Of a stretch of 64,000 bases of DNA, positions 14,531 through 54,846 are shown piece after piece. The stretch covers positions 1,807 through 65,806 of the forward strand of contig JBPOHW010000003.1 of the NCBI GenBank assembly GCA_052035095.1, in the 5' to 3' direction. Under the pieces are notes generated by a model. It saw only the letters and a program-made list of their open reading frames with translations, was not told where the DNA came from and did no database searches. This stretch comes from Candidatus Moraniibacteriota bacterium (GTDB taxonomy: Bacteria; Patescibacteriota; Minisyncoccia; Moranbacterales; UBA1568). Position numbers and translations under genes: made by a program. Every line of letters begins with the position of its first letter. Positions within the stretch are counted from its first letter, which is position 1.

Positions 14531-15061
14531 TCATTTTTTCTTCCATGCTCCCGAGCCTTCTTTCAAGACAAGTGAGTAGATATCGAACGGTTCGTTGAAA
14601 AACTTTTCCAGTATATGCAAACACGCCTCAGCAACCGCCCCATCCCCACCTCGCAGGTTCGTGATAAAATCCGCCTTCTCTTTCGTTGCATAAAAAGCAT
14701 TGGCTGGAGCAATACTATAAGCAACGTGCTTAAAAACAAGTGGATCGAATATGCCGTCACCCATATAAATCGTTTCCGCCGGATCGAACCGATCGCGAAT
14801 CCACTCTATCCGCTCAAAAGTACTCACGAGGTCCAGTGGAAGCTTCATATCGTCGGCTATTCGTCGCTTCGTAATGGCAAAGCCGTTTTTATCACCGGTA
14901 ACCGCATGAATCATGAGTTTTCCCCGAAGAAGAGAAAGGGCGTCGTTATCTTCCGGACCGAACTTCTTCATGACTTTTCCATCGACGGTATAATAAAACG
15001 TACCGTCCGTGAAAACACCATCGACATCAAGAATGAAATTTTTTATTGTTTTCTTTTTCAT
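14531..15061 (-). CDS. HAD-IIIA phosphatase, KdsC-like (sugar-phosphate phosphatase)
   Basis: ILDVDGVFTDG...MGDGIFDPL...GGDGAVAEACLHIL matches the 3-deoxy-manno-octulosonate-8-phosphatase family. Confidence 0.7.
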   Translation of the reverse strand: MKKKTIKNFILDVDGVFTDGTFYYTVDGKVMKKFGPEDNDALSLLRGKLMIHAVTGDKNGFAITKRRIADDMKLPLDLVSTFERIEWIRDRFDPAETIYMGDGIFDPLVFKHVAYSIAPANAFYATKEKADFITNLRGGDGAVAEACLHILEKFFNEPFDIYSLVLKEGSGAWKKK

Positions 15062-41017: not shown

Positions 41018-41084
41018 ACTTCTAGCTAGCTTAATATTGTTTTTTGTTGTTTGTTGTCAGTTGGAAGTTGTAAGTTCAAAACGG

Positions 41085-41157
41085 TGGGTCGGGTGGGAAT
41101 CGAACCCACGACCGTTGGCTTAAAAGGCCACTGCTCTACCGACTGAGCTACCGACCC
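41085..41157 (-). tRNA. tRNA-Lys (anticodon TTT)
   Basis: Reverse complement GGGTCGGTAGCTCAGTCGGTAGAGCAGTGGCCTTTTAAGCCAACGGTCGTGGGTTCGATTCCCACCCGACCCA folds as a cloverleaf with anticodon loop CTTTTAA; CCA not encoded. Confidence 0.85.
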
Positions 41158-41208
41158 GTATCTACATATCCATCGTTTTACTTGGTGGGAAAAACCAACG
41201 ATATTCTT

Positions 41209-41255
41209 CTTAAAAGCCCGCCAGCTGGCGGGTCTACCGACTGAGCTACCGACCC
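41209..41255 (-). repeat. Partial tRNA-Lys copy (acceptor+D arm, 23 nt identical) joined through a 16-nt perfect palindrome CCCGCCAGCTGGCGGG to a copy of the anticodon loop
   Basis: tctaccgactgagctaccgaccc at 41233-41255 equals 41135-41157; palindrome at 41217-41232; cttaaaag repeated. Confidence 0.5.
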
Positions 41256-41346
41256 GGTTCTACGATGGACGAACAAAAACAGGACAAGAGACGCCCCATC
41301 AAAGGGAATTGTAGCACGAAACCGCGAGGCGTCAATGAAAACCCTC

Positions 41347-42668
41347 TTATCTCTTCGGCGCGATCACGTCCTTCCCGACAAAGGGGCGGAGAACTTCCGG
41401 CACGACGACACTGCCGTCCGCTTGTTGGTAATTTTCGAGGATGGCGATCGCGGGGCGAATGGAAGGCATTGCCGTATTGTTGAGCATATAGACGTACTTT
41501 TTTTCGCCCGTTTCTGGATCGCGATATTTCACATTGAGGCGGCGCGCCTGCCAATCGAGGAAGTTCGATGCCGAGCCCGTCTCTGCCCACCGATTCGTTC
41601 CCGGAAGCCACGCCTCGATATCGAAGGCGCGATATTTCCCCGCGCCCATATCACCCGTGCATATTTGAATCTGCCGATACGAAAGCCCGAGCTCGCGATG
41701 CATCTCGGCGGAAAGCTCCTTCATCTCTTCCTGAAGCGCGTCTGCCTTTTCGATATCCGCCGCCGCGAGCACCACCTGTTCCACTTTCATAAATTCATGC
41801 ACGCGGTAGAGCCCCTTGGTATCTTTGCCGTAGCTCCCGATCTCACTGCGATAGCACTGACTCCACCCGCACAGTCGAATCGGCAGACTCGCCCCATCAA
41901 GTGTCTCGCCCGAATAGTACGCGAGAAGCGACGGCTCGGCGGTCCCCACCAAAAATTTTTGCTCTTTGGACGCGCTTCCGTCCGATTCTTTATCTCGAGT
42001 CGCCACCTGATATATTTCATCCACCTCGCCATTGTATTCGGTTCCTTTGAAGTATCCGCTCCCAAAGAGCGGGAAACCCTTTACCAAGGTCGGCGGAATC
42101 ATCGGCATATATCCCTTTTCCACCATCTTCCGAAGCGCGTACTGCATAAGCCCCATTACGAGAAGCGCACCCTCGTTTTTCCAGTAGTATCCGCGGTAGC
42201 CCGCCACTTTCGCTCCGCGTTCGAGGTCGAGAATGTCGAGCATATTCCCGAGTTCGATATGCGTGCGAGGCGCAAAATCAAACTTTTTCGGCTCACCCCA
42301 CGTCGCGATTTCCGCATTCTCGGCGTCGCTCTTCCCGATCGGCGTGTCCGGCGACGGCACCGTCGGCGCTTCCGAGAGAAGTCGCTCGAAACGCTCCCGT
42401 GCCTCGCGACACTTCGGCTCGAGTTCCTCCGTCTTCGCTTTGATTTCTTTCGCTTTCGCCAAAATATCCGCCCGTTCCTCCGGTGTCGCTTTGGCGATAA
42501 GGTCATTGATATCGTTCTTGAGCGAATACAGTTCCTCCAGTTCTTGCTGAAGCTTTACTCGCTCCGCGTCCGCCGAGAGGAGCACCTCCACATCAAATGA
42601 AAGATTTTTATCCTTCGCCGCTTTCGCCACTTCCGCCTTGTGATCGCGAATGTATTGTATATCAAGCA
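41347..42668 (-). CDS. serS: Seryl-tRNA synthetase
   Basis: N-terminal coiled-coil arm, class II motifs (…FRSE…, …GLGLERL-like) ; start chosen at ATG MLDIQYIRD (ORF extends to a TTG at 42687). Confidence 0.9.
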
Positions 42669-42709
42669 TAGGAATTAAGACGCTCAAAATTTACGCTGAA
42701 TGTAAAACT

Positions 42710-42799
42710 TGGCGGAGGCGGGAGGATTCGAACCTCCGAGACCATTTCTGGCCTAACAGTTTTCAAGACTGTCTGTTTCAACCACTCACACACGCCTCC
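42710..42799 (-). tRNA. tRNA-Ser (anticodon TGA), CCA encoded
   Basis: Reverse complement GGAGGCGTGTGTGAGTGGTTGAAACAGACAGTCTTGAAAACTGTTAGGCCAGAAATGGTCTCGGAGGTTCGAATCCTCCCGCCTCCGCCA; long variable arm; anticodon loop CTTGAAA. Confidence 0.85.
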
Positions 42800-42901
42800 G
42801 TATACGATATATTCCATAATCTTCCCCTCCAGACTATCAAGAAAAACACCGCCTGTAAAACGTGATATACTGTCTTTATCAGTCGTTTCATTCACTTCCC
42901 T

Positions 42902-43363
42902 ATGGAGCAAACATCCCCTCCCCTTCGATGGACGGCGCCGGAATTCGATTTGTCATCGACGCGCGCGCCACTTCTCCTCATACTGGTCTTTCTCGGTATG
43001 GTGGTCTACGCCCTCATCGAAAACAGCCCCATTATGGCGATCACCTTCGTCCTCCTTGGAACCGTCACCTTTCTCCATAGCCGCAAACCCCCGAGAACAC
43101 TCAACTGTGCCCTCACAAAAGACGGCCTTACGGTGGGGCAAGAACTCTATCCCCTCGACAATATCGCCTCGTTTTGGATCATCTATGAACCCGGTGAGCA
43201 GAGCCTTTTCCTCAAAACCAAAGGCTCGCTCATCGCTTCCGTCCGCGTCCCGCTCGGAAATATGAGCCCGAATACGCTCCGAGAAGCCCTGATAGGAAAC
43301 ATTCGCGAAGAAAAGTACGAACCCACCATTCTTGACACCCTCTCCCGTTTCCTGCATATTTGA
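42902..43363 (+). CDS. Hypothetical membrane protein
   Basis: 153 aa, two N-terminal TM helices, no recognisable motif. Confidence 0.35.
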   Translation: MEQTSPPLRWTAPEFDLSSTRAPLLLILVFLGMVVYALIENSPIMAITFVLLGTVTFLHSRKPPRTLNCALTKDGLTVGQELYPLDNIASFWIIYEPGEQSLFLKTKGSLIASVRVPLGNMSPNTLREALIGNIREEKYEPTILDTLSRFLHI

Positions 43364-43382
43364 ATGACGAAAGGGCGATTTC

Positions 43383-43455
43383 GTCTTCGTAGCTCAGTGG
43401 ATAGAGCGTCTGGTTGCGGTCCAGAAGGTCGCAGGTTCGATTCCTGCCGAGGACA
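43383..43455 (+). tRNA. tRNA-Arg (anticodon read as GCG)
   Basis: GTCTTCGTAGCTCAGTGGATAGAGCGTCTGGTTGCGGTCCAGAAGGTCGCAGGTTCGATTCCTGCCGAGGACA; 7-bp acceptor stem, anticodon loop TTGCGGT; no CCA. Confidence 0.8.
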
Positions 43456-43487
43456 CACATAAAAAAGTCCTTGACGTGTCTGATTGT

Positions 43488-43546
43488 GGTCCAGAAGGTC
43501 GCAGGTTCCCTGCCTGCCGGCAGGCAGGGATTCCTGCCGAGGACAC
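43488..43546 (+). repeat. Partial copy of tRNA-Arg 3' half carrying a 20-nt perfect palindrome (CCTGCCTGCCGGCAGGCAGG) inserted in the T-loop between positions 56 and 57
   Basis: ggtccagaaggtcgcaggttc + palindrome + gattcctgccgaggacac; preceded by GTCCTTG that could pair with the 3' CGAGGAC. Confidence 0.5.
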
Positions 43547-43570
43547 GACACGCGAATAAGAGAGATAAAA

Positions 43571-43595
43571 AACGAGCCTCTCGGCTCGTTTTTTG
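43571..43595 (+). terminator. Rho-independent terminator after the tRNA-Arg locus
   Basis: AACGAGCC-TCTC-GGCTCGTT followed by TTTTT. Confidence 0.5.
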
Positions 43596-43616
43596 ATATC
43601 CCGAAGATATTCCTTT

Positions 43617-44174
43617 CTATGTCGCACTCCAGAAGCTCATCATAATACCAAGGTCTCGCGTATTGACCACATTGTCGGTATTTACATCGGCGGCAAGTCC
43701 GGTCCCGGTCTGAAGCCACTGCCCAACCAAGGTGACAAAATCCGAAAGACTGTAGGTACGCGTCTGAGTATTCACTGAGACGCTCGTTGACTTGTTCGAC
43801 TCACCAAAGCCGCTATAGGAGGAAACAGCATACACGTATGTCCCGGCGGTTAATCCTGTATCCGAATAGGTTGTCGTGGTCGAGTTGGTCGTCCCCACCT
43901 GCGCGGTCGGCGTACACCCAGTCCCGGCGCATCGGTACACTCTATATCCCGCGAGCCACCCATCAGTCACAGCACCCCACGAGAGATTGATCTGTGTCGG
44001 AGAGGATGATGATCCCGTAAGTCCCGTCGGCACCGGTGGCGCTTGCGCCGGTGGTGGAGGTGGCGGCGGAAGAGTCTGGGCAAGCGTTGCCGGAAGGAAG
44101 GCGATAAAAGCAATTGAAAGGAGACCGACGAATACTCCGAAAATGACCTTTGTTTTGTTCGAGAGTTGCTTCAT
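43617..44174 (-). CDS. Secreted fibronectin-type-III + dockerin-like protein
   Basis: Signal peptide, poly-Pro linker, FN3-like INLSWGAVTDG...YRVYR...YVYAVSSY, C-terminal DVNTDNVVNTRDLGIMMSFW dockerin-type Ca-binding repeat. Confidence 0.5.
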   Translation of the reverse strand: MKQLSNKTKVIFGVFVGLLSIAFIAFLPATLAQTLPPPPPPPAQAPPVPTGLTGSSSSPTQINLSWGAVTDGWLAGYRVYRCAGTGCTPTAQVGTTNSTTTTYSDTGLTAGTYVYAVSSYSGFGESNKSTSVSVNTQTRTYSLSDFVTLVGQWLQTGTGLAADVNTDNVVNTRDLGIMMSFWSAT

Positions 44175-44231
44175 AGAGAGTTTTGTTATGGTTATTGAAT
44201 ATTGCACTATTACGTTTCACTCTCGAGGCGA

Positions 44232-46073
44232 TTATCGAACTCGAATGAGGATTCTCCGCACTGTCCGATTGCCCGCTTCGTCATAGGCAGTGAGCTGGAA
44301 GGTGTGGATACCGGTCGGCGCATCCGCGGGGATATTGAAGGACTTGCTCTTCGTTGACTTTGATTTGCCGAGGAACGTGTAGCGGTAATGATCCATTTCG
44401 TCATTATCCTTCGCCATCCACCACACCTTTTCGCCGCGCGCCTTCATCAGAAAGAGGGGGAGATCGGTAATTTCCGGATCCTCGCTATCAATCTTGACCC
44501 GATACTCGCTCGACTTCTCGATTTCGGCGCCACTCGCGTTTACGTAGCGGACGCGGTATTCATAGGTGCCATTCTTCTTCTCCTTCACCCGAAGCGACCA
44601 CTTACCGTCGCTCCCGACTTTCTCGCTCGTTTTCAATTTTCCCTCGCGGTAAATTTCCACCATCCCGCCCGAAAGCTCGGCATCCGTTCCGCTAAACGAT
44701 ATTGTTTTCTCGCTTGTCAAGATCTTTTCCGAATTCGAGAAGTTCCCGGTCGTGTCCATAATCTTTACCTTGCGTCCCTTGCAAGACTGCTCGACAACTG
44801 GACTCCCGCCCGTACATCCCGAAGGCGAGGAGCTAGTAATAGAGCGCGTCTGCTTCCCCTTGGTACAATTCCCCCAGTCGGAGTATTCAAAGCTTGTACA
44901 GGTATTGTCCGTCGGCGGAGTATAAGTGCAGGCTTCACTTGATGCCGGAGGCGTACCGCCCGAGCATCCCGAAGGAACACCGGTCACGGTTCGGGTTCGG
45001 GTATTGTTCGGTTGGCAATCACCCCAAATGGATGTATTGAAGCTCGTGCAGGTCGTTCCACCACCCGTATAGGTACAATCCTGAACTGACGCCGGCGGGT
45101 TACCACCTGTACACCCCGAAGGAACGCCCGTTACTGTCCGTGTCTGAGTATTGTTTGGCTGACAGGTGCCCCATGCAGACGTATTGAAACTCGTGCAGGT
45201 CGGCGACACATAGGTGCACGCTTGCGTCAAGTCGGGTGTCGCCCCACCACTACAACCGGTCGGTATACCGGACACCACTGCTCGCGTTTGGGTATTGTTT
45301 GGTTGGCAGGTGCCCCAGTTCGAATAATTGTAGTCCGTGCATACCGGCGCTCCAACCAGCGCTCGAATACCGGAAACTCCATTCAAAAGATCATTTCCCC
45401 CACCATTATCTTCAATCACATCCGAATCAGTCTCGTTGTTGGCACCACTAAACGTATAGAGAATATTATTGGTCGTCGAGGTCACATTGCGAAGCGCTTT
45501 GAAAGTCAGTGTCGCCACCAAGCCGGAGTGGCTATTGACTCCCGGCGAAGGCTTTGCAAGCGTCAACGAGATTTTTCCATTTGCCGCGTCGTCATCTATA
45601 ATCTGACAAGGATTTCCTTGGTATACACAGGTATTTCCCGTAGCAAATATCGAGCCACTCGTATTCCAACCGGTCAATTGAAAGTCCGCCTGATTGTAGG
45701 TCACCATCGCTCGTACCGCCACCGCATCGACACCGCCCGTATCAACCAGAAGCTCCACATCAAAGGTTTCGTCTTGCGCCACGTTGATCACTCCGGAAGT
45801 CGCCTGCGGAGAATCCATCGATAAGGTCGCCTGACCGCTCGCTTTGGAAAGGCTCTCGATCTCGAGCGAGACACTCCAAACGAAAGACACGAAAGCGCCC
45901 GAAACAAAGGCGAGCATAAAAAGCCCCTGCCATGTCTTGACGCGCGTGCGCGCTATGAATACCCATGACTTCCCGAGAAGCGGAAGCGACTCATTCGCCA
46001 GTTTGTCTACCTGGCGTTGCAGGGTTCCTCCCACTTGGAGCGGATCCTTTTTTTGTTTTTCTCCGTTATTCAT
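44232..46073 (-). CDS. Large secreted/membrane-anchored protein with a cohesin-like domain, four tandem Cys-rich repeats of about 48 aa, and C-terminal Ig-like domains
   Basis: N-terminal TM; FDVELLVDTGGVDAVAVRAMVTYNQADFQLTG...GLVATLTFKAL resembles cohesin; repeats TCTSFNTSAWGTCQPNNTQTRTVTGVPSGCTGG x4. Confidence 0.45.
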   Translation of the reverse strand: MNNGEKQKKDPLQVGGTLQRQVDKLANESLPLLGKSWVFIARTRVKTWQGLFMLAFVSGAFVSFVWSVSLEIESLSKASGQATLSMDSPQATSGVINVAQDETFDVELLVDTGGVDAVAVRAMVTYNQADFQLTGWNTSGSIFATGNTCVYQGNPCQIIDDDAANGKISLTLAKPSPGVNSHSGLVATLTFKALRNVTSTTNNILYTFSGANNETDSDVIEDNGGGNDLLNGVSGIRALVGAPVCTDYNYSNWGTCQPNNTQTRAVVSGIPTGCSGGATPDLTQACTYVSPTCTSFNTSAWGTCQPNNTQTRTVTGVPSGCTGGNPPASVQDCTYTGGGTTCTSFNTSIWGDCQPNNTRTRTVTGVPSGCSGGTPPASSEACTYTPPTDNTCTSFEYSDWGNCTKGKQTRSITSSSPSGCTGGSPVVEQSCKGRKVKIMDTTGNFSNSEKILTSEKTISFSGTDAELSGGMVEIYREGKLKTSEKVGSDGKWSLRVKEKKNGTYEYRVRYVNASGAEIEKSSEYRVKIDSEDPEITDLPLFLMKARGEKVWWMAKDNDEMDHYRYTFLGKSKSTKSKSFNIPADAPTGIHTFQLTAYDEAGNRTVRRILIRVR

Positions 46074-46160
46074 AGCGCCGCAACAAAAAAATTAGAGACT
46101 TAACTTAAATATTTTCTTAAGTGTACACTCAAATACGCAATACAAGAAGAACTCACCGTC

Positions 46161-46628
46161 TCACAAGGAAGCGTCGAACGATTTCAATATGTCCGCGATA
46201 GCGACGATTCCCGTCATAGCACCGGAATCTCCCACCACCGGAAAGACACTCAAGCCGGTCTCTTTGAATTTTTTGATAAGATCCTTGACGGGAAGCGATT
46301 CGGGGACCGTCTGGCACGGCGAACTCATAATATCTTTGGCTTTGGCCTGCATCAAGCGGTCTACCATTTCGCGCCGACTGCCGCTCATTTCGCTTACGAC
46401 TCGCATCTTCCGCATAAAATCAATATACGATGGGAGATAAATACTCGACGAATCCTTCGTAAAAAAATCTGTCTCCGTGATAATACCAACTATCTTTCCT
46501 CCCTCGAGAACCGGAACACCGTGAATGCGATGCTCGGTAAGAAGCGAGGCGACTTTCTGGAGCGGCTCTTCCGGTTCGACCGAAATAACCGCACTCGTCA
46601 TAATGTCTTTCACGGGAGAGTCTTCCAT
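46161..46628 (-). CDS. CBS-domain pair protein
   Basis: Two CBS motifs (VKDIMTSAVISV...GVPVL, AKDIMSSPCQTV...VFPVV). Confidence 0.7.
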   Translation of the reverse strand: MEDSPVKDIMTSAVISVEPEEPLQKVASLLTEHRIHGVPVLEGGKIVGIITETDFFTKDSSSIYLPSYIDFMRKMRVVSEMSGSRREMVDRLMQAKAKDIMSSPCQTVPESLPVKDLIKKFKETGLSVFPVVGDSGAMTGIVAIADILKSFDASL

Positions 46629-46864
46629 ATGAACAACACAAAACAGTAAAACCGAAAAACCGGTACCCGCAGTATACACGAATATTGATTTTCCGTAAAA
46701 GTACCTTCTCGATGTGTGTCAAGACTCAAGCCGATACCCACCAATATCCCCTTTACAAAAGCTGAAAAAAAGAGAGGATGGAGTTGGAAGCCCGCCCGCA
46801 ACGCTTTGCCCGTCAGCAACGCTTGAAGCGTAGCTTCTACGGGCTGGCGTAGCGATACGAGCGA

Positions 46865-46916
46865 GTTGTCAGTCGCCAGTCGCCAGTCGTCAGTTGTCAG
46901 TTGTGAGTTGTGAGTC
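46865..46916. repeat. Short tandem hexa/heptanucleotide repeats (GTCGCCA/GTTGTCA/GTTGTGA variants) upstream of recG
   Basis: gttgtcagtcgccagtcgccagtcgtcagttgtcagttgtgagttgtgagtc. Confidence 0.4.
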
Positions 46917-46922
46917 AACCCT

Positions 46923-49004
46923 ATGCCTTCCCTTGAAACAACCATTGCCGATCTCCCAAGTGTCAGGAAGAATTTTCTTCCGAAATTCGCCGCGCTCGGC
47001 ATCCGCACCGTGCGTGATCTCTTGTTTCACATTCCCTCGCGCTACGAAGACTTTTCGGAAATCAAGAATATCGCCGAAGCGGTTGAAGGCGAAAAAACCA
47101 CCTTCGAAGGAACGATCGCTCCTTTCCGAGAAAAGAAAACATGGAAACGGCAGATGAAAATTTTTGAAACAGACTTGACCGATGATTCGGGAACGATTCG
47201 CCTCGTCTGGTTCAATCAGAAACTTGTCATTGATTCTCTCGCCCCTGGCACGCGTATTCGCGTTTCGGGCAAGGTTGGGAGCGATCAGGGCGGACTCGTT
47301 ATGATTTCCCCCGCTTTCGAGCGATCGACTCGCCGCCCGACCCACACGGCGCGCCTCGTCCCCGTCTACCCGGAAACCTACGGTCTCACCTCCAAATTCA
47401 TTCGCTGGCAAATACAAACGCTTTTTGAAAAAAAAGTGGGTGTGCCCGATCCTCTGCCGCCGGAACTCCTCGAAAAACTTCACCTTCCTTCACTTCCCAA
47501 AGCGCTCCGTATGCTCCACTTCCCCGCCACGATGGATGAAGTGGAAATCGCCCGGAAGCGCCTCGCCTTCGACGATATGTTCCTCGCGCAAATGAAAAGT
47601 CTCGAACTCAAATCGCTCTGGAGTCAAGAATCGGCGGTTTCTTTCCCGCTCGAGCATCATTTTTTGGAACGATTCGAAAACTCGCTCCCTTTCTCGCTTA
47701 CCGCCGCGCAAAAAAAAGCGGGGCAGGAAATTCTCGCCGATCTCGCCCAAACGAAACCGATGAACCGCCTCCTGAATGGCGACGTCGGCTCCGGCAAAAC
47801 GGTAGTTGCAGCGCTTTCGGCGCTTCGCGTCGCGCGAGGCGGATTCCAAACGGCGATCCTCGCCCCGACGGAAGTATTAGCCCGCCAGCACTACGAAACT
47901 CTCTCGAAACTATTCGCGCGCGAGCCCATTCAAATTGCGCTCCTCACGCGTTCGTATCAAACACTCGGTTCGGAAACCATCGTCAAAGAAACACTCAAAA
48001 ACACGCTCTCGTCCGGACTCGCGAGTATCGTAATCGGCACGCACGCTCTCCTCCAAGAGGACGTGTCTTTCAAAAATCTCGCCCTCGTCATCGTGGACGA
48101 ACAACACCGCTTCGGTGTCTCCCAACGCGCGAAACTTCAAGAGGCGACGACTCAAGCGAACGACGGTCTGCCAAATGCCATTCCCCACCTTCTCACCATG
48201 ACCGCGACCCCCATTCCACGCACGCTCGCGATCGCCTTTCTCGGTAATCTCGACATTTCCGTCCTCGACGAACTGCCCCGCAATCGGATTCCCATCATCA
48301 CCAAAATCGCCGCGACACGCGAGGCGCGAGAAACCATCTTTCGCTTCGCCAGGCAGGAAATAAAAAAAGGGCGGCAAGTTTTTGTCATCCTCCCCTTGGT
48401 CGAAGAGTCCTCCGCGCTCTCGGAAGTGAAAGCCGCCAAAACCGAACACGAAAAACTCTCCACAAAAGTCTTCCCCGAGTTCAGCGTCGGACTCCTCTAT
48501 GGAAAAATGAAATCCGCCGACAAAGAGAAGGTGATGCGAGATTTCAAAGACGGGAAAAGCGAAGTACTCGTCTCCACGTCCGTCGTCGAGGTGGGCGTCG
48601 ACGTTCCCAACGCGACCGTAATGATCATTGAGAATGCCGATCGTTTCGGACTCTCCCAACTCCACCAATTTCGCGGTCGCGTCGGCCGCGGCACAAGCGC
48701 GTCCTATTGTTTCCTCCTCCCCGGCAAAAACGGAACGAATGATCGTCTCGAGGCGCTCGTCACGAGCACGAATGGATTTTTCTTGGCGGAAAAAGACTTG
48801 GAACTCCGCGGTCCGGGCGCGTTCTTCGGTCTCCGCCAGTCCGGCCTCCCCGATATCGCAATGAGTCACCTCGGGAATCCCCGCCTCATCAAAATCTCCA
48901 AAGACGAAGCCGCCGCAATTCTCGAAAACGATCCCAAACTCACCCGCCACCCCCTCCTCCGCGCCGCCCTCGACAAAATGACCGAAGAGGTACATTTGGA
49001 ATAA
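46923..49004 (+). CDS. recG: ATP-dependent DNA helicase RecG
   Basis: Wedge/OB N-domain, helicase motifs GDVGSGKTVVA, VDEQHRFGV, C-terminal TRG motif region. Confidence 0.9.
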   Translation: MPSLETTIADLPSVRKNFLPKFAALGIRTVRDLLFHIPSRYEDFSEIKNIAEAVEGEKTTFEGTIAPFREKKTWKRQMKIFETDLTDDSGTIRLVWFNQKLVIDSLAPGTRIRVSGKVGSDQGGLVMISPAFERSTRRPTHTARLVPVYPETYGLTSKFIRWQIQTLFEKKVGVPDPLPPELLEKLHLPSLPKALRMLHFPATMDEVEIARKRLAFDDMFLAQMKSLELKSLWSQESAVSFPLEHHFLERFENSLPFSLTAAQKKAGQEILADLAQTKPMNRLLNGDVGSGKTVVAALSALRVARGGFQTAILAPTEVLARQHYETLSKLFAREPIQIALLTRSYQTLGSETIVKETLKNTLSSGLASIVIGTHALLQEDVSFKNLALVIVDEQHRFGVSQRAKLQEATTQANDGLPNAIPHLLTMTATPIPRTLAIAFLGNLDISVLDELPRNRIPIITKIAATREARETIFRFARQEIKKGRQVFVILPLVEESSALSEVKAAKTEHEKLSTKVFPEFSVGLLYGKMKSADKEKVMRDFKDGKSEVLVSTSVVEVGVDVPNATVMIIENADRFGLSQLHQFRGRVGRGTSASYCFLLPGKNGTNDRLEALVTSTNGFFLAEKDLELRGPGAFFGLRQSGLPDIAMSHLGNPRLIKISKDEAAAILENDPKLTRHPLLRAALDKMTEEVHLE

Positions 49005-49061
49005 GAAAACGCCTTGATCGAATTCGATCAAGGCGCAAAGTTTCAGAACATTCAATACCAT

Positions 49062-50921
49062 TCAGTCATCCCCTTCCAAGAGACTCTCCTTCGAATATCC
49101 CCTCAGTCCTAACTTTTCTCGAAGAGATCTTTTTCCCTTAGACTCTACTTGGTTAATTCTCTGGCGACTCAGATCCATTTCTTGTCCGAGCGACCCAAGC
49201 GTCCTTTCATTGTCATCAAAAATCCCGAAACGCCCAGAAAGCACGTCTCTTTGTTGCCTCGGAAGCGACTTCACGGAATCTTGAACGATACGCCGCCGCT
49301 CTTCGGCAAAACACCGGCTTTCAGCCGAAGGCTTCCGGTCAGGAAGGATATCCAACAGATTCATCTCATCCGCACCGCTTAATTCAGCATCAAGTGATAC
49401 GACACCTGCCAAATACATCCCCGCAAACTCTCTTGCTATCTTTAAAGGGACTTTTGCATCGGCAGCCGCGCGAATCATCGCTTCCTCTCGACCGAACACC
49501 TCGAGAAACCGCTCCATACTCTTTCCAAACTTCACAAATTTCCAGTGAAGACCCTTTGGAATCGATATGGCGCTCGATACTTTCGCGTAGGCGCCCTGCA
49601 AACAACCGTTGATGTACGGGATTGCATAACTTGAAAACTTCACACCCCATTCCGGATTAAACCGATGAACAACGTCCAAAAGAGCGAGGTTGGCTTCCTG
49701 TATACAATCCTGTATATCCATTCCCACCCTCTTCGGATGCCGCTTCCAGAAACGAAAAGCGAGCCAGCTCGCCAAACGCAAATTGGCGTGCACCAGAGCG
49801 TTAAAGGCCGCATCATCACCATTGCAAACCTTCTCCGCGATATCCCTTTCCTCTTCCGCGCTCAGAAGGCGGAATGTCTGAACCTTCTCCTGATACCAAT
49901 TTTTCACATCGACACTGGCATCGCTTTCCCTGCGTCGAAGATCCGATTGACGCTTCGCCTGCTTCGCCGTTCCGGAATCTTGACACTTCCGACCCCGCTT
50001 CTTTTGAGTGGAATCTTTCGGCAATCGGCCAGCTCTCTTCCGTCGGCGGTTCAGATCTCCTCCCTCATTCACCGTAACAGGAGAAGTCTTTGCGGCGACT
50101 GCCCAACTCACTGCCGGCCCAATTTTCTTGACCTGTCCCTGTTGGCAGTAGTCTTCCACTTTTCTCTCACCATTAGCGGGTGAAGGAATTGTTGTCGCGG
50201 TTGTTTGACGCGTCACCGGTTCAACCTTCTTGACCCGCTCCGGTCGAGATTGGATTTCTGAAGGAAATGTCCGAATCCACTCCGGTCTCTCCTCTTCTGA
50301 GAGACCGCACTTTTCATGAAAAAATCTCAAAAAGTCGACCCCAAGATAATCGCCATCACAAATCATGCGATCAAGAAAGTCTTTTTCGAGAAGATTGAAT
50401 CGCGATATTTCCCGTCTATTTTGCAACTCAACTTGAAGCGGAACACCATATACACCGCTCGTTGGATTTACCATCCGAGCGAGCATCCTTCGCACGGAAG
50501 TTCCGACAAAACGCTCAAGAGAGAGAAAGTTCCTGATTCTCGTAATCCTCTCGCGAGCATTTCTGTGGAAAATATGTCCACATACCGGACAACGCAAAAC
50601 CATGGGCGGTATGACGACAAAGCCATCAAGAGACGAGGAAAAAATATCTTGACCGTCTCTCCGAAGAAAGGATTCTTTCTCAAGCAACCTATCTTCAATG
50701 CCGGACAATTCCGGTTTCCACTGAAGGCACCGCCCATCCTCGCGAAGTTCAAATTGCCCCCACACCAAGAACCACGAGAGAGATTCCCCCTTCACGGCAG
50801 CTTCCCGCCGCATTTGCACCATCGTCCAAAACTTCCCCCACGACTCAAGAGACTTGAGAATACCCTCCGCCGAATCATACCTTCGCCGAGTACCGACATC
50901 AACTCCCGATTGCGATACCAT
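49062..50921 (-). CDS. RNA polymerase sigma-70 family factor with a roughly 340-aa N-terminal extension containing a CPVCGH zinc-ribbon-like motif
   Basis: Regions 1.2/2 (ANLRLASWLAFRFW...IQEANLALLDVVHRFNPEWGVKFSSYA), region 3 and region 4 (LGSLGQEMDLSRQRINQVESKGKRSLRE) in the C-terminal 280 aa. Confidence 0.65.
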   Translation of the reverse strand: MVSQSGVDVGTRRRYDSAEGILKSLESWGKFWTMVQMRREAAVKGESLSWFLVWGQFELREDGRCLQWKPELSGIEDRLLEKESFLRRDGQDIFSSSLDGFVVIPPMVLRCPVCGHIFHRNARERITRIRNFLSLERFVGTSVRRMLARMVNPTSGVYGVPLQVELQNRREISRFNLLEKDFLDRMICDGDYLGVDFLRFFHEKCGLSEEERPEWIRTFPSEIQSRPERVKKVEPVTRQTTATTIPSPANGERKVEDYCQQGQVKKIGPAVSWAVAAKTSPVTVNEGGDLNRRRKRAGRLPKDSTQKKRGRKCQDSGTAKQAKRQSDLRRRESDASVDVKNWYQEKVQTFRLLSAEEERDIAEKVCNGDDAAFNALVHANLRLASWLAFRFWKRHPKRVGMDIQDCIQEANLALLDVVHRFNPEWGVKFSSYAIPYINGCLQGAYAKVSSAISIPKGLHWKFVKFGKSMERFLEVFGREEAMIRAAADAKVPLKIAREFAGMYLAGVVSLDAELSGADEMNLLDILPDRKPSAESRCFAEERRRIVQDSVKSLPRQQRDVLSGRFGIFDDNERTLGSLGQEMDLSRQRINQVESKGKRSLREKLGLRGYSKESLLEGDD

Positions 50922-51005
50922 AAACGCATCTCCTCTGTTCGTGAACCAAAATAAAAAGGTACTTCCTTTACAGTAAAGGAAGTACCCGAGTTGTCAAGCC
51001 TACTT

Positions 51006-52736
51006 CTATTTCCTCCGCACTTTTTCCGTGACCCAGAATTCGCCGAAGTATTTGCCGAAGAGGAGCCGTGTCTGCGAATCGAGCGCGGGGAACGCCGAGA
51101 GAAACGCGACGAAGGGCGACAAGACCCATTGGAAGAGCATCACGAAATATTTCGAGGAATGATAGCGCGCGGGCTTCGGCGGGAGCGAGAAGAGCGAGAG
51201 TGGCACGGACACAACCATACCGAGAAGTGCCAAGGTCATGAGTCGCTGAGTAATGAGCGGGAGATTGTGCGCCAAGACGCTCTCGCGAAACGCGATACCG
51301 CCCAAGATAAGCGGGAGCCATCCCAAAAGCGCCAAAAGAAACGACGTCGTCGCCCACGAATAGTGCCCCTCAAGCATCTCAAACGAGATGCGAAGCTTCT
51401 TGAAGAATCCGATTTTTGCGTCCGGCCAGAGCGCGCGCATCGTGACGGGAAAATTCTCGATGCCATACGCCCATCGACGGTTCTGCTTGTATTGATTCAC
51501 GATCGTCTTCCAGTAAGAATCCGCCAAAACCGCGTCGAGCGACACGGGGAGATGAATCGGTTGCACTTCGTAATCGCCGTGAAAATACGCGATACACTTC
51601 CAATAGATCACCGAGTCCTCGCTGATCATATTCACCGGCCAAAATCCTACCCGAACGAGCGTGTCAAACGGCTCGCTATGCGACGAAAACGTCACCATTT
51701 GCCGCCGCGTACTCTGAAACAAGTGCCAAAACGACGAGCCTGTCACCACGAGTCGCACAAAGGCGTTCGTATCCCAGATCGTATTGTGATAGACCGGCAT
51801 CGGCTGATACGCTCGTTGGAGGCGTTTCGGATTGGTCACATAGGCATAGGTGAGCGCCGCGAAATATTCCGGATGCGCCACGCTATCGCAGTCGAAATTG
51901 GAAAAAATGACGCGCGTATATTCAATGCTTCGTTCGTCGAGATATTTTTGAAGTTCTTTGGCGGCAAATTTGGCGTTCGACGCCTTGCATTTCATCTCGC
52001 CCTCCGCGACAATATGCGTCGTCACGAGAAAGTCCTTGAAGACACCATCAAATTTCTTTTTCAAATACTCCACCTTTGCCGTGCGGTGCGCCGCGTCTTC
52101 GCGCTCCTCGGTCGCGAGGAGTACAATCATCTGTTCCTTGGGGAAATTCGCTTCGGCAAGCGACCGGATCGCGGGTTCGATCACCTCCGCCCCCTCTCCG
52201 GCGGTCGGCAGGAGAACGACATGAATGATTTTGCGCCAGTCCCAAATCTCCTCCGCGATCGGCACGAGTCGTTTTGCTTCGCGAAGCGTTTCTTTCGTCC
52301 GGCACAACTCCTTCCTCATTTTGAGCCGATTGCCGAGCGCAAAAAACGGTAAAGCTTTTCGCATCTGACGAAGATGTTCCATCCTCTCTTCGAGTTCTCG
52401 CGCAAACACTTCCGGCTGAAGACTGTTCTGGCACCGTTCCCACCAGTCTATTGTTTTGCTCTTCACTAATCGGAAATGCGCCCGCGTCGAATAGTAGGAA
52501 ATGAACACGATGCGATAGAGCCAGTAGAGATCAAAAAGAATGATGGCGACCGCCGCCCAGAGCGGCAGAAAAAACGAAATGACAAACATCCCGATGAGCG
52601 TCCCCCACGAGAGAAGCCCCGGCACCATCTCAAGCGCGCGCTGAACCCGCCGCGCCCGCGGCTCGGTCGTTTTCGGATCGGGGAACACAAAAATTTCCCC
52701 CAACTTCTCCTCCTTACGGTCAACATTCATAAACAA
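51006..52736 (-). CDS. Processive family-2 glycosyltransferase (CesA/BcsA/NodC-like synthase) with flanking TM helices
   Basis: DxD (FSNFDCDSV) and Q(Q/R)xRW (YKQNRRWAYG) motifs, 2 N-terminal and about 4 C-terminal TM helices. Confidence 0.65.
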   Translation of the reverse strand: MFMNVDRKEEKLGEIFVFPDPKTTEPRARRVQRALEMVPGLLSWGTLIGMFVISFFLPLWAAVAIILFDLYWLYRIVFISYYSTRAHFRLVKSKTIDWWERCQNSLQPEVFARELEERMEHLRQMRKALPFFALGNRLKMRKELCRTKETLREAKRLVPIAEEIWDWRKIIHVVLLPTAGEGAEVIEPAIRSLAEANFPKEQMIVLLATEEREDAAHRTAKVEYLKKKFDGVFKDFLVTTHIVAEGEMKCKASNAKFAAKELQKYLDERSIEYTRVIFSNFDCDSVAHPEYFAALTYAYVTNPKRLQRAYQPMPVYHNTIWDTNAFVRLVVTGSSFWHLFQSTRRQMVTFSSHSEPFDTLVRVGFWPVNMISEDSVIYWKCIAYFHGDYEVQPIHLPVSLDAVLADSYWKTIVNQYKQNRRWAYGIENFPVTMRALWPDAKIGFFKKLRISFEMLEGHYSWATTSFLLALLGWLPLILGGIAFRESVLAHNLPLITQRLMTLALLGMVVSVPLSLFSLPPKPARYHSSKYFVMLFQWVLSPFVAFLSAFPALDSQTRLLFGKYFGEFWVTEKVRRK

Positions 52737-52763
52737 AGAATACCCTATTTGAAGGAAAAAGGC

Positions 52764-52796
52764 AAGAAAAAAGCCCGGAAAATTCCTTTGCCGGGC
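52764..52796 (-). terminator. Rho-independent terminator downstream of small ORF 52824-53192
   Basis: Minus-strand GCCCGG-CAAAGGAATTTT-CCGGGC followed by TTTTTTCTT. Confidence 0.45.
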
Positions 52797-52823
52797 ATGG
52801 GTATTATATTTATAAGATCCGTA

Positions 52824-53192
52824 TTACTTCACCGCCTTCATCTCACTCCTTTGAATAAGGGTTTTAATCTCCTCATCGTTTGTGCCAATGTCAGCAAGGG
52901 AGAATTTCCATTGTTGACACTCACGACGAATGATCTCGACGCAGGAATCATACTCCCAGCTGCCTTCACGGAGAAGATCAAGGTACCGCCTGACCTTACT
53001 TTTGGCACCCTTTATACAGCATCCTTTAATCTCATCTTCATTTGTGTCAATGTCAGCAAGGGAGAATTTCCATTGTTGACACTCACGACGAATGATCTCG
53101 ACGCAGGAATCATACTCCCGGCTGCCTTCACGGAGAAGGCTGAGATATTGCCGAGCTGTCTGCATAGCTTCTTGAGTCGCCATCGTTACCAC
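52824..53192 (-). CDS. Small hypothetical protein (122 aa) built from two nearly identical 54-aa tandem repeats
   Basis: YLSLLREGSREYDSCVEIIRRECQQWKFSLADIDTNEDEIKG / YLDLLREGSWEYDSCVEIIRRECQQWKFSLADIGTNDEEIKT; underlying DNA repeats about 160 nt, near-identical. Confidence 0.35.
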   Translation of the reverse strand: MVTMATQEAMQTARQYLSLLREGSREYDSCVEIIRRECQQWKFSLADIDTNEDEIKGCCIKGAKSKVRRYLDLLREGSWEYDSCVEIIRRECQQWKFSLADIGTNDEEIKTLIQRSEMKAVK

Positions 53193-53292
53193 CCTCCTGG
53201 ACTAGGATTGAACAAGAACCACATTCCCGCTATACTGGAACTATTCCAGCAAGCATCTCTCCTGTATACACTATTTCTAAACTTTTGTCAAT

Positions 53293-54549
53293 ATGCTTTG
53301 GCGATTTCCCAAAAACTTCCTCTGGGGGGCGGCGACCTCGTCGCATCAGGTGGAGGGCGGCACGACCAATGACTGGAGCGAGTGGGAAAAGGTAAACGCC
53401 GACCGCCTCGCCCGCGAAGCCGCCGCAAAGTTCGGTCACCTCCCCGGCTGGACGGAGAAGTTCGGCACGGAAGCCGCCAGTCCCGAGAATTATATTTCCG
53501 GCATTGCCGTCGATCACTATCATCGTTACGAAGCGGATTTCGATATCGCGAGGAGTTTGGACCACACCGCGCACCGCTTCTCCATCGAGTGGTCGCGCGT
53601 CGAACCCGAGGAAGGAAGATTCGACGAAGCGGAAATAGGGCATTACCGAAATGTCGTTCGCGCCCTTCGCGCACGAAGCATCGAGCCTTTCGTCACACTC
53701 TGGCACTGGACGCTTCCCTTGTGGCTCGCGCGACAAGGAGGCATGCTCGCGCCGCGATTCCCGCACTACTTCGCGCGGTATGCGGAAAAAATGGCGCACG
53801 CACTCGGGAATGACGTGACCTTTTGGATCACGCTCAATGAACCCGATGTCGTCACTTCGCATGCCTATCTCAAGGCCGCCTGGCCGCCGCAAGAAAAGAG
53901 CGCCCTGAAATTTCTTCGCGCCAACTTCGCTCTCATACACGCGCATAAAAAAGCATACGACGCCATAAAAAAGAAACTTCCCAAATCTCAAATAGGCGTT
54001 GCTAAACACCAGGTTTCATTCGAACTCAGAAGAAACGCGATCGCAAATCGAATACTCAAGAAATTCGCGCACTATTTTTGGAACCGATGGTTTCTCAACC
54101 GTATAAAAAAGTATCAAGACTTCATCGGACTCAATCACTACAATCGAAACGTCATCAACAATGGCTTCAGCAAAAACCCAAACAAGCGCCTCACTGATTT
54201 CGGCTGGGAATTTTATCCCGAATCCATCTATCAGGCGCTCGTCGAATTAAAGCCCTACAAGAAGCCCATTTACATTACCGAAAACGGTCTCGCCGACCAA
54301 AGCGATACACTCCGAAAAGAATTTTTGACACGCGCGCTCACGTCCGTCCACCGCGCGATCCACGACGGCGCCGATGTCCGCGGCTACCTCTACTGGTCGT
54401 TCCTCGACAACTTCGAATGGGACAAAGGCTTCTGGCCCCGTTTCGGTCTCGTCGACGTCGACCGCAAAACACTGGAGCGAACCATCCGACCGAGCGCTCG
54501 TTTCTACGCCGACATCTGCCAGGCGAATGCAATCGAAACACCATACTGA
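53293..54549 (+). CDS. Glycoside hydrolase family 1 beta-glucosidase
   Basis: FPKNFLWGAATSSHQVEGG N-terminus, acid/base TLNEP, nucleophile ITENG. Confidence 0.85.
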   Translation: MLWRFPKNFLWGAATSSHQVEGGTTNDWSEWEKVNADRLAREAAAKFGHLPGWTEKFGTEAASPENYISGIAVDHYHRYEADFDIARSLDHTAHRFSIEWSRVEPEEGRFDEAEIGHYRNVVRALRARSIEPFVTLWHWTLPLWLARQGGMLAPRFPHYFARYAEKMAHALGNDVTFWITLNEPDVVTSHAYLKAAWPPQEKSALKFLRANFALIHAHKKAYDAIKKKLPKSQIGVAKHQVSFELRRNAIANRILKKFAHYFWNRWFLNRIKKYQDFIGLNHYNRNVINNGFSKNPNKRLTDFGWEFYPESIYQALVELKPYKKPIYITENGLADQSDTLRKEFLTRALTSVHRAIHDGADVRGYLYWSFLDNFEWDKGFWPRFGLVDVDRKTLERTIRPSARFYADICQANAIETPY

Positions 54550-54615
54550 CCTTGCGCAACAGCTTTTTTATGCTACAATCTGAAAGAGCCGAAAGGCTTT
54601 TGTTTTTTGTCTCTC

Positions 54616-54690
54616 GGCCTCATCGTCTATCGGTTAGGACAGCGGCTTTTCAAGCCGTTAAGAGGGGTTCGACTCCCCTTGAGGCTACCA
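54616..54690 (+). tRNA. tRNA-Glu (anticodon TTC), CCA encoded
   Basis: GGCCTCATCGTCTATCGGTTAGGACAGCGGCTTTTCAAGCCGTTAAGAGGGGTTCGACTCCCCTTGAGGCTACCA; preceded by a hairpin+T-run that terminates the GH1 gene. Confidence 0.85.
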
Positions 54691-54710
54691 AGAAAACTCA
54701 AAAATTCATC

Positions 54711-54777
54711 GAGGGGTTCACCATGTCATTCGACATGGCGCCCCGTCGGATGACGGGGCGACTCCCCCTGAGGCTAC
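54711..54777 (+). repeat. Partial copy of the tRNA-Glu T-arm+acceptor 3' strand with a 40-nt insertion (two perfect hairpins) at T-loop position 56/57
   Basis: gaggggttc + [ccatgtcattcgacatgg + gccccgtcggatgacggggc] + gactccccctgaggctac. Confidence 0.5.
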
Positions 54778-54783
54778 ACGGAA

Positions 54784-54846
54784 ATGATCCTCGCGCTCGA
54801 AACATCGTGTGATGAAGTGGCTTTCACGGTCAGAAAAAACATTTGA
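54784..54846 (+). pseudogene. Duplicated 5' fragment of tsaD (first 11 codons, 32 nt identical to 57153-57184) running into a stop after 20 codons
   Basis: ATGATCCTCGCGCTCGAAACATCGTGTGATGAA = MILALETSCDE, identical to the tsaD start 2.3 kb downstream. Confidence 0.5.

Follow-up and report, generated by a model that had tools for sequence, protein, structure and literature searches.

Hairpin-interrupted partial tRNA copies in a Moraniibacteriota contig as candidate relics of GIY-YIG nuclease cassettes at tRNA genes

The free-standing GIY-YIG homing endonuclease genes of T4-like phages constitute the Seg family, with SegB located in the transfer RNA (tRNA) gene cluster of T4; we know of no duplicated or disabled tRNA, nor of any conserved hairpin module, associated with Seg genes. 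Duplication of a tRNA 3' end from the T-loop onward is the classic signature of an integrase, and the sublocations of integrase crossover within tRNA genes were reportedly set out by Williams in 2002. Here we describe a 64 kb stretch of DNA (the window; 48% GC) from Candidatus Moraniibacteriota bacterium (assembly GCA_052035095.1, contig JBPOHW010000003.1, positions 1,807 to 65,806), in which the tRNA-Lys, tRNA-Arg and tRNA-Glu genes each have, within 100 nucleotides (nt), a partial copy interrupted by a GC-rich hairpin. In all likelihood these structures belong with a family of cassettes that comprise a small GIY-YIG nuclease open reading frame (ORF), a pseudo-tRNA and a hairpin, and we consider it rather probable that the three loci are gene-less relics of such cassettes, acting as selfish elements of homing type that colonise tRNA genes, the homing mechanism included.

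The cassettes resemble the Seg genes in that a small GIY-YIG gene lies amid or beside tRNA genes and presumably spreads when a double-strand break is repaired, with its flanks co-converted. The Seg proteins, however, have a DNA-binding domain at their C-terminus and two to three times the length of the bare Slx1-like catalytic domain found here, and the cassettes are chromosomal (their type A hairpin, described below, had no matches in IMG/VR when searched in a D-arm context). Integrative elements that use tyrosine integrases to target tRNA genes, crossing over in the anticodon loop or T-loop and restoring the gene with a tRNA segment of their own, similarly leave one tRNA intact, with a displaced partial copy that repeats it directly and breaks at tRNA loops; the present loci differ in having no integrase, a cargo of approximately 250 bp or none, duplications of both 5' and 3' ends, and a conserved hairpin inside the displaced copy. 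REP/REPIN-RAYT systems and IS200/IS605 palindromes share a few conserved families of short GC hairpins, often flanking a single nuclease gene, and the matching of hairpin family to protein clade, but the cassette protein is a GIY-YIG nuclease rather than an HUH Y1 transposase, and the hairpins lie in tRNA-derived frames instead of being scattered in their hundreds through intergenic DNA. The mobile GC clusters and double-hairpin elements of fungal mitochondria are likewise GC-rich palindromes in a less GC-rich genome that co-occur with homing-endonuclease ORFs in or near structural RNA genes, yet they belong to organelles, differ in sequence and come with no duplicated tRNA. Finally, group I introns with homing endonuclease ORFs in the anticodon loops of bacterial tRNAs also place a nuclease ORF in a tRNA gene whilst keeping tRNA function, though here there is no ribozyme (no Rfam match) and function is kept by duplication, not splicing. 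In none of these systems are a bare Slx1-like nuclease, a tRNA both duplicated and disabled, and a conserved cognate hairpin found together. A published description of the arrangement was not found in PMC and bioRxiv full text, including searches with the exact 20-mer described below and with family names, although coverage was incomplete and a prior description is possible; the cassette is apparently a widespread, undescribed element.

Four tRNA genes were called in the window by both ARAGORN and Rfam: tRNA-Lys(UUU) at 41083-41157 (minus strand, 75.4 bits), tRNA-Ser(UGA) at 42710-42799 (minus strand), tRNA-Arg(GCG) at 43383-43456 (plus strand) and tRNA-Glu(UUC) at 54616-54690 (plus strand). 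When each tRNA was searched against the window with blastn-short, partial copies were located for Lys, Arg and Glu, none of which is itself called as a tRNA by ARAGORN or Rfam, whilst no copy of tRNA-Ser was found in the window. The claim of an earlier note on this DNA, that three of the four tRNAs have a partial copy within 100 nt, was thereby borne out, and the structures recur in independent assemblies. A scan of the window for perfect stems of at least 8 bp with loops of up to 8 nt returned exactly three stems with a GC fraction of 0.75 or more, namely the Lys, Arg and Glu hairpins, each within 100 nt of a tRNA in zones that make up approximately 1.7% of the window. Within these 64 kb the three hairpins are confined to the tRNA copies and have mutually different sequences; the dispersal of many near-identical hairpins through intergenic DNA that is typical of REP/REPIN-RAYT or IS200/IS605 palindromes is not seen in the window. 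The description of all three as perfect palindromes needs amendment: they are the most GC-rich stems of the window, but the Glu structure is an insert of two hairpins.

At tRNA-Lys the copy lies upstream on the minus strand, beginning with an exact match to tRNA positions 1-23, the acceptor 5' strand and D-arm (41255..41233; 23/23, 100%, E=5e-8). The hairpin CCCGCCAGCTGGCGGG follows at 41217-41232 (minus strand; perfect-stem scan) in place of positions 24-31, so that the break after position 23 falls at the boundary of D-stem and anticodon stem, not in the T-loop, and the 5' strand of the anticodon stem is replaced. Next come the anticodon-loop string CTTTTAAG, corresponding to positions 32-39 (41209-41216, minus strand; sequence reading and blastn-short), and a degenerate stretch at 41184-41200 (minus strand) that by reading weakly resembles a T-arm (CGTTGGTTTTTCCCACC versus CGTGGGTTCGATTCCCACC); the spacer between CTTTTAAG and tRNA-Lys measures 51 nt. 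A promoter-like TTGACG-N17-TACAAT at 41308-41335 (minus strand), upstream of both pseudo-copy and tRNA-Lys and kept in the related loci L001 and L259, is their putative promoter. The hairpin was considered as a terminator, with CTTTT on its 3' side, but the same hairpins occur in His, Asn and Arg copies without a T-run, so this is not a general role.

The Arg copy begins 10 nt past tRNA-Arg and is a near-complete look-alike without a D-arm. Its 5' part (43467-43508, plus strand; sequence reading and blastn-short) has a paired acceptor strand, GTCCTTG, together with the variable loop, the T-stem 5' strand and TTC, and the T-stem is intact; positions 26-56 are repeated at 43478-43508 with 93.5% identity, two transitions in the anticodon arm having changed the anticodon from GCG to GTG. 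The 20-nt palindrome CCTGCCTGCCGGCAGGCAGG (43509-43528, plus strand; perfect-stem scan) interrupts the T-loop between positions 56 and 57 (written 56/57 below, and other breaks likewise) and with its flanks forms a perfect 24-nt palindrome (43507-43530), after which positions 57-74 resume at 43529-43546 (plus strand; blastn-short, 18/18, 100%). The Glu copy, which starts 20 nt past tRNA-Glu, comprises a T-arm and an acceptor 3' strand: the T-stem 5' strand with TTC, positions 47-55, at 54711-54719 (plus strand; blastn-short), and the 3' half of the T-loop, the T-stem 3' strand and the acceptor 3' strand, positions 55-73, at 54759-54777 (plus strand; blastn-short, 18/19, 94.7%). Between them a 39-nt insert at 56/57 (54720-54758, plus strand; fold z=-3.5) holds the hairpins CCATGTC-ATTC-GACATGG (54721-54738) and CGCCCCGTC-GGAT-GACGGGGCG (54739-54760), the latter extending 2 nt into the next part of the pseudo-tRNA. 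The Arg and Glu breaks therefore share one T-loop position (GGTTC/GA), as had been reported.

Partial tRNA copies are common among relatives. In 80 SerRS-anchored Patescibacteria loci (1.4 Mb in total), exact seeds of 9-12 nt within approximately 300-350 nt of a tRNA detected a copy for about 26 of 91 tRNAs, the estimated chance being approximately 0.005 per tRNA. The break after position 23 seen at window Lys recurs in L038, L039 (twice) and L046, and that at T-loop 56/57 in L007, L008, L013, L016, L024, L025, L029 and L056, whilst L012 and L062 are broken around position 13. Breaks of the second kind recall att sites, and the partial copies could be scars of lost integrase islands or prophages, with the hairpins as later, unrelated insertions: both Arg and Glu repeat their tRNA from position 57 to its end, the L013 repeat even reaches past the tRNA end, and the attB of Ms6 lies in a T-loop (PMC1762012). 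We regard this as very unlikely. No integrase or phage domain was found by Pfam among the eight proteins flanking the window tRNAs (which include a BNR-repeat protein, a GH1 glycosidase, an RDD protein and a Band 7 protein; the SerRS gene also lies here), and none was noticed at the loci of relatives, whose flanks had no Pfam screen. Only 10-75 nt separate the repeats, leaving no island, and Lys duplicates the 5' end (positions 1-23). Att scars would also not explain why, in dozens of contigs unrelated to one another, the same hairpin sequences recur beside a GIY-YIG ORF at identical tRNA coordinates.

The nuclease was found where the window has only a spacer. In L046 an 84-amino-acid (aa) ORF with a GIY-YIG domain (PF01541, E=1e-16) fills the gap between a hairpin-bearing pseudo-tRNA-Lys and the intact tRNA-Lys, and homologues occupy the same place in L038 and L039; L117 presents a tRNA-Lys-like 5' part, CCTGCCTGCCGGCAGGCAGG, GAGC...CTTTTAAA, an 87-aa GIY-YIG ORF and a second tRNA 5' part. 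A profile of these four ORFs matches bacterial UPF0213 structures and eukaryotic SLX1 (PDB 1zg2, E=1.6e-13; 1ywl, 6e-11), and the cassette ORFs, of 80-97 aa, are stand-alone Slx1-like/UPF0213 proteins, the minimal Slx1-like branch of the GIY-YIG superfamily having been described by Dunin-Horkawicz et al. 2006 (PMC1564403). A search of phage records returned distant homologues only, and in the one region inspected, of Rhizobium phage RHph_Y65, no tRNA is annotated beside the gene. PHROGs gave nothing useful for the nuclease, and PADLOC matched no known anti-phage defence model, giving only a weak 'HEase' match (E=1.8e-5) for two of the four proteins. In L117 the second tRNA-like copy (824-960), CCCCGGTAGCTCAGTTGGTAGAGCGGTTGGCT, runs on into an extended GC-rich insertion at the anticodon loop, and no tRNA is called there; this copy may represent either a tRNA with an intron or a further disabled duplicate.

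At least 407 related ORFs were matched, on contigs of 30-64% GC, and 80 metagenome loci (209 kb) chosen by protein similarity alone were taken from them, the operational cassette family being defined from L038, L039, L046, L117 and L174-L253. A tRNA lay within 150 nt of 62 of 96 ORFs, on the same strand in 62/62, and all tRNAs in the 80 loci (95/95) were co-oriented with the ORF; a partial copy was present within 700 nt for 61 of the 74 ORF-adjacent tRNAs, and cassettes were associated with tRNA-Lys, Asn, His, Arg, Leu, Pro, Gly, Cys, Ile, Gln and Asp. Two orders recur: a pseudo-tRNA 5' part with hairpin and anticodon loop, then the ORF, then the intact tRNA; or the intact tRNA, then an ORF that reads into a pseudo-tRNA 5' part, then the hairpin and the rest of the pseudo-tRNA. 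Pseudo-tRNA and intact tRNA are of one tRNA type. L046, L038, L039 and L117 display the first order or its mirror. The ORF starts 4-13 nt after a tRNA end and stops inside, or a few nt from, the 5' end of the next tRNA, often with a TAG within tRNA sequence, and a GC hairpin lies 12-45 nt before its start or 2-25 nt after its stop, often on both sides (L174, L175, L180, L187, L192, L206, L229). Some loci have two to five ORFs per tRNA cluster, and units form tandem arrays in L175, L180, L206, L221, L229 and L242. An extreme instance is L183:330-2770 (also L184 and L185), where five GIY-YIG ORFs of different clades are interleaved with tRNA-Leu, Pro, Gly, His, Arg and Lys, and where ARAGORN calls a tRNA with a CUA anticodon ('tRNA-Pyl') at the place of tRNA-Arg(UCU) in L182 and L186.

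The recurrent hairpin modules include type A (TCCGCC..GGCGGA), type B (CCTGCCTGCCGGCAGGCAGG) and a T-loop module, with exact TCCGCCAGCTGGCGGA present 13 times and CCTGCCTGCCGGCAGGCAGG 6 times in the 209 kb. Mapping of the 64 hairpins flanked by tRNA sequence onto tRNA coordinates placed 33 at 23/32, with the 5' strand of the anticodon stem replaced, and six, all clean type B insertions, at 21/22; a further eight lay at or before position 13, six in the anticodon arm, four around 38/47, five in the T-loop and two at later positions. The D-loop insertions of CCTGCCTGCCGGCAGGCAGG at 21/22 occur in pseudo-tRNAs beside GIY-YIG ORFs (L117, L206, L226, L244, L251), whilst those in the T-loop are of type B in L177 and of type A in L180, L192, L202 and L204. 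Frequently an entire tRNA arm gives way to a hairpin, as does the D-arm in L208 or the T-arm in L235, and two or three hairpins may share one pseudo-tRNA (L174, L180, L187, L204). By protein clustering, nuclease clades track tRNA identity (one all Arg-ACG, one all Asn, one Lys/His/Asn), and hairpin type tracks nuclease clade across tRNA types, type B going with one sub-clade whether on Arg, Lys or Asn; the exact 16-20-nt hairpin sequences are conserved while the nucleases diverge to 35-50% identity. The suggestion that a mobile element or recombination system targets tRNA T-loops is accordingly supported in part, in that recurrent hairpin families are tied to tRNA sequence and to a nuclease gene, but T-loops account for only 5/64.

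Exact CCTGCCTGCCGGCAGGCAGG is also dispersed in IMG/VR, where it was found at 42 sites in 35 stretches, as against 0 for two composition-matched control palindromes. The contigs concerned (L086-L120) range from 37 to 68% GC and have up to six copies each, mostly at intergenic sites, many of them in short tandem-repeat contexts (for example L088:1660, L104:3391, L040:13308 and L094:8396). Two copies lie inside tRNA-Met sequences, in the variable loop in L110 and as a decayed version in L087. Direct repeats of 5-14 nt flank 8 of 48 unique sites, 0.7 being expected, and comparison of L012 with L008, L025 and L009 shows CCTGCCTACCGGCAGGTAGG as a clean indel of 20 nt. These findings, and the presence of several hairpins in single pseudo-tRNAs, would suit autonomous REP- or MITE-like palindromes moved in trans by a transposase and tolerated in dead copies, to which the nuclease is incidental. 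We think such an origin improbable, since the three GC-rich hairpins of the window all lie in approximately 200 nt of pseudo-tRNA sequence, a concentration much too high for neutral landing. Moreover, the tRNA positions are stereotyped, nucleotides are often replaced rather than added, no target duplication was seen at hairpin insertions in tRNA context, and the hairpin type co-varies with nuclease clade at a fixed distance from the ORF. The earlier view of the palindromes as insertions thus holds for CCTGCCTGCCGGCAGGCAGG, which behaves as a discrete insertion, but the hairpins do not stand free in tRNA genes; they sit in the disabled duplicate. The 16-mer CCCGCCAGCTGGCGGG had 53 matches in IMG/VR, approximately what chance would give in GC-rich DNA by estimate, and is uninformative. 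On a Paceibacteria contig exact TCCGCCAGCTGGCGGA occurs twice away from called tRNAs and without a tRNA frame (L082:1369-1384 and 11380-11395), one copy lying within a long ORF and the other directly following SerRS.

Two further origins for the hairpins were considered and rejected: a repair product derived from the flanks (palindromic filler, or template switching at the T-stem), as the same 20-mer occurs where no such stem exists, and a cut-and-paste transposon bounded by palindromes, as the hairpins of tandem arrays all remain within a tRNA-derived frame.

No GIY-YIG ORF was detected in the window by tblastn with the family ORFs, and membership of the window structures in the cassette family therefore rests on hairpins, architecture and a 10+6-nt remnant. 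An intact tRNA with a disabled duplicate is present at Lys, Arg and Glu. A conserved hairpin at a stereotyped coordinate is present at Lys, where it is type-A-like and at the modal 23/32, and at Arg, where it is exact type B in the T-loop. The design and position of CCCGCCAGCTGGCGGG match the TCCGCC-N2-4-GGCGGA hairpins of L038, L039, L046, L175, L180 and others, and TCCGCC(AA/GG)CTGGCGGA of L038/L039 occupies its exact place, with the outer pair differing (T-A to C-G). The Lys spacer ends ...GATGGATATG/T/AGATAC/GGGTCGG, AGATAC directly abutting tRNA-Lys: GATGGATATG (41165-41174, minus strand) equals the ORF start of L175, 10/10 from unit position 1, and AGATAC (41158-41163, minus strand) equals the ORF end in L038 and L039 (...cacagAGATACtctc/GGGTCG). 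A 10-mer shared with any part of four units arose in 4% of shuffles, and a match at an ORF start has an estimated probability of approximately 0.3%. The stretch 41158-41174 would be what an internal deletion of approximately 255 nt leaves of a GIY-YIG ORF. The protein partner, which on this comparison would be the Slx1-like ORF, was thus invisible to the earlier reader because the window appears to have lost it.

The state of these loci in other assemblies bears on their mobility. By its SerRS homologues the organism falls in Candidatus Moranbacteria, within the Patescibacteria (candidate phyla radiation); a lookup of the exact SerRS protein found no record. The Lys structure is identical base for base in an independent Logan assembly of the same species (L005). 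In L001/L006 and in L259 (88% SerRS identity) the Lys site is empty: the copy of positions 1-23 is absent, and TTGACG-N17-TACAAT and the leader run directly into tRNA-Lys. The Arg locus is empty in CP064989 (L265), whereas in L262 the intact tRNA precedes a different GC hairpin and a repeat of positions 44-74 whose T-loop is unbroken, and in L264 a pseudo-tRNA-Arg upstream of the intact tRNA has CCTGCCTGCCGGCAGGCAGG between GGATA and GAGC, that is at 21/22, plus a 60-nt insert in the T-loop. This insert, ending ..GTCATTCGATATGAC.. and ..AGTGACCGGGC/GACTCC, matches at its ends the window Glu insert (..GTCATTCGACATGG.. and ..GATGACGGGGC/GACTCC), the shared ends being ..GTCATTCGAYAT.. and ..TGACSGGGC/GACTCC. 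At Glu itself, L255 (77% identity in the neighbouring RDD protein) shares the pseudo T-arm and the insert at the same position, though decayed, its stems destroyed by transitions while the adjoining intergenic DNA is approximately 90% conserved. Lys and Arg are therefore polymorphic for presence, and Glu is shared but decayed. Because empty, differing and decayed states are found among relatives, the loci are evidently gained, rebuilt, inherited and left to decay on the time-scale of species divergence.

The same assemblies speak to the suspicion that the structures are artefacts of assembly or amplification, such as chimeric joins or library palindromes. Short-read contigs of the same organism do break at or next to the loci, L005 ending inside tRNA-Lys (41084 equivalent) and L257 starting just after the Glu copy (~54788 equivalent). 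An artefact is nevertheless scarcely credible given the identical sequence in an independent assembly, the diverged homologue in another species, the recurrence of the architecture across many projects, in over 80 contigs, and the occurrence of the 20-mer in IMG/VR entries with isolate-like identifiers. Breaks at pairs of tRNA and pseudo-tRNA are as expected if repeats confuse assemblers, and tRNA-adjacent contig ends in bins of the candidate phyla radiation may often hide such elements.

As a homing cassette, the element would operate as follows. Its nuclease would break an unoccupied cognate tRNA gene near the coordinate marked by the hairpin, and the broken ends would be repaired from the occupied allele, with the tRNA sequence itself supplying homology on both sides, so that repair synthesis would copy the hairpin, the ORF and a tRNA segment. 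Through this segment one junction would restore a working tRNA, and the other would leave the displaced segment as a pseudo-copy. The hairpin, located at or killing the dead copy, would remove the cleavage site and interrupt a direct repeat that could otherwise delete the cassette; it might also be the cognate structure of the nuclease, which as an Slx1-like protein would be structure-specific. Should the intact tRNA in an occupied allele be broken and then repaired from the neighbouring pseudo-copy, a unit would be added, and tandem arrays are therefore predicted, as seen. Later the ORF would be lost by deletion, as the Lys remnant suggests, whilst pseudo-tRNA and hairpin would persist and slowly decay, as Glu has done in L255. 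The homing mechanism itself we consider roughly an even bet.

Several observations weigh against regarding the loci as relics of homing cassettes. The window has no nuclease ORF, as stated above, and Glu is its weakest locus, being neither type A nor type B and linked only through the inserts of L264 and L255; the Glu hairpin had no match in IMG/VR, and no exact relatives were found. Most of the 42 IMG/VR sites of CCTGCCTGCCGGCAGGCAGG lie outside tRNAs and away from GIY-YIG genes. An 84-aa nuclease has no separate DNA-binding domain, and the intact tRNA beside the ORF retains the presumed target sequence, which leaves self-immunity unexplained. The mechanism and the part given to the hairpin, including cleavage, homing and the cut site, are inferred, and this too must be counted. 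Lastly, several Moranbacteria have, downstream of or beside tRNA-Lys, a tRNA-Lys-derived element of 120-190 nt with its own terminators (L008:11375-11525, L025:11379-11528, L012:12274-12456, L029:11504-11646, L056:14517-14659 and 14812-14986, L039:7774-7915), with no GIY-YIG ORF nearby and no Rfam match. It contains a structured module of approximately 100 nt in the T-loop with the conserved motifs GAAAGGCGGAG, CGAGCCGGGGTCG and GTGACC/GA, whose consensus fold (L008, L025, L029, L056, L039) is closed by the T-stem and shows compensatory changes in 19/31 predicted pairs, some of them G-U, among six sequences of which some are closely related. The element may be an undescribed non-coding RNA, and compensation without an ORF suggests selection on RNA rather than junk.

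Extended to the window, this would make the hairpin-bearing look-alikes functional structured RNAs under selection, be it as tRNA-derived non-coding RNA, as punctuation in the processing of the ORF mRNA, as decoys, or as RNA partner or antidote of the nuclease, which would itself be an accessory or a hitch-hiker. Such a role would accommodate the hairpin variants that keep pairing through double changes (TCCGTCAGCTGACGGA versus TCCGCCAGCTGGCGGA), the frequent exchange of whole tRNA arms for hairpins, and the Arg copy, whose acceptor stem remains paired despite two substitutions and which folds as a D-armless cloverleaf at -42.2 kcal/mol (z=-4.6 against shuffles). A tie to RNA metabolism is provided by fusions of UPF0213 domains to the tRNA methyltransferase TrmH (PMC1564403). 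We nonetheless hold it to be unlikely: the Lys unit is missing in relatives of 88% identity, the Arg locus is empty or rebuilt, and the Glu hairpins are ruined in L255 where neighbouring intergenic DNA is conserved. In addition, the fold of the Lys pseudo-copy does not improve on that of shuffles (z=0.1), the covariation comes from the few sequences noted, and no Rfam family was matched, Rfam returning only the four tRNAs in the window, only tRNAs in seven related loci, and tRNAs or noise at the L049 site. The earlier suggestion of tRNA-derived structured RNAs has real backing from the related T-loop module and the fold of the Arg copy; against it, for the window copies, stands their being absent, rebuilt or decayed in near relatives.

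If the cassette reading is correct, a large and unnoticed family of selfish cassettes occupies bacterial tRNA loci, one that would account for contigs that break at tRNA genes, for pseudo-tRNAs and for tRNA fragments in tandem, both in Patescibacteria and in other metagenome-assembled genomes, and that would give the enigmatic UPF0213 and bacterial Slx1-like proteins a concrete, testable context. It would add a third way for a nuclease gene to reside in an essential RNA gene, by duplication and a disabled decoy, besides splicing and intergenic parking, and annotation could flag hairpin-bearing copies as relics instead of tRNA genes or unexplained repeats. Hairpins of 16-20 nt apparently matched to a nuclease of approximately 85 aa would make a compact system for structure- or sequence-specific recognition. 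More speculatively, and with considerable doubt, these may be an undescribed class of mobile element that pairs a minimal Slx1-like GIY-YIG nuclease with a cognate GC hairpin in a decoy tRNA. The nuclease would recognise the hairpin, as extruded DNA or as RNA, the tRNA flanks would serve as universal homology arms, the spare copy would let the element enter essential tRNA genes without destroying them, and the solo 20-bp palindromes dispersed in phage and bacterial genomes would be footprints or landing pads.

Two other arrangements were observed. A nested tRNA-Val structure was found in L012:9160-9330, L017:~9840-9960, L032:5440-5600 and L014:9340-9720, in which an intact tRNA-Val lies between 13-bp inverted repeats (gcttg CCCCGTTACAACT ... 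AGTTGTAACGGGG tgaa) that break into the D-loop of a surrounding tRNA-Val, which is degenerate and has a different acceptor type. A pair of the outer stem covaries between L012 and L032, and what this stem encloses in L014 is 91 nt of different sequence, with further copies that have anticodon-loop hairpins. Directly after the Glu pseudo-copy in the window lies a 20-codon ORF, MILALETSCDEVAFTVRKNI (54784-54846, plus strand), which by eye resembles the N-terminus of TsaD-type proteins and may represent either a fragment of a gene or a small ORF with a regulatory role; its DNA is conserved to approximately 90% in L255, the 77% relative, and in part in L256, more so than the adjoining pseudo-tRNA.

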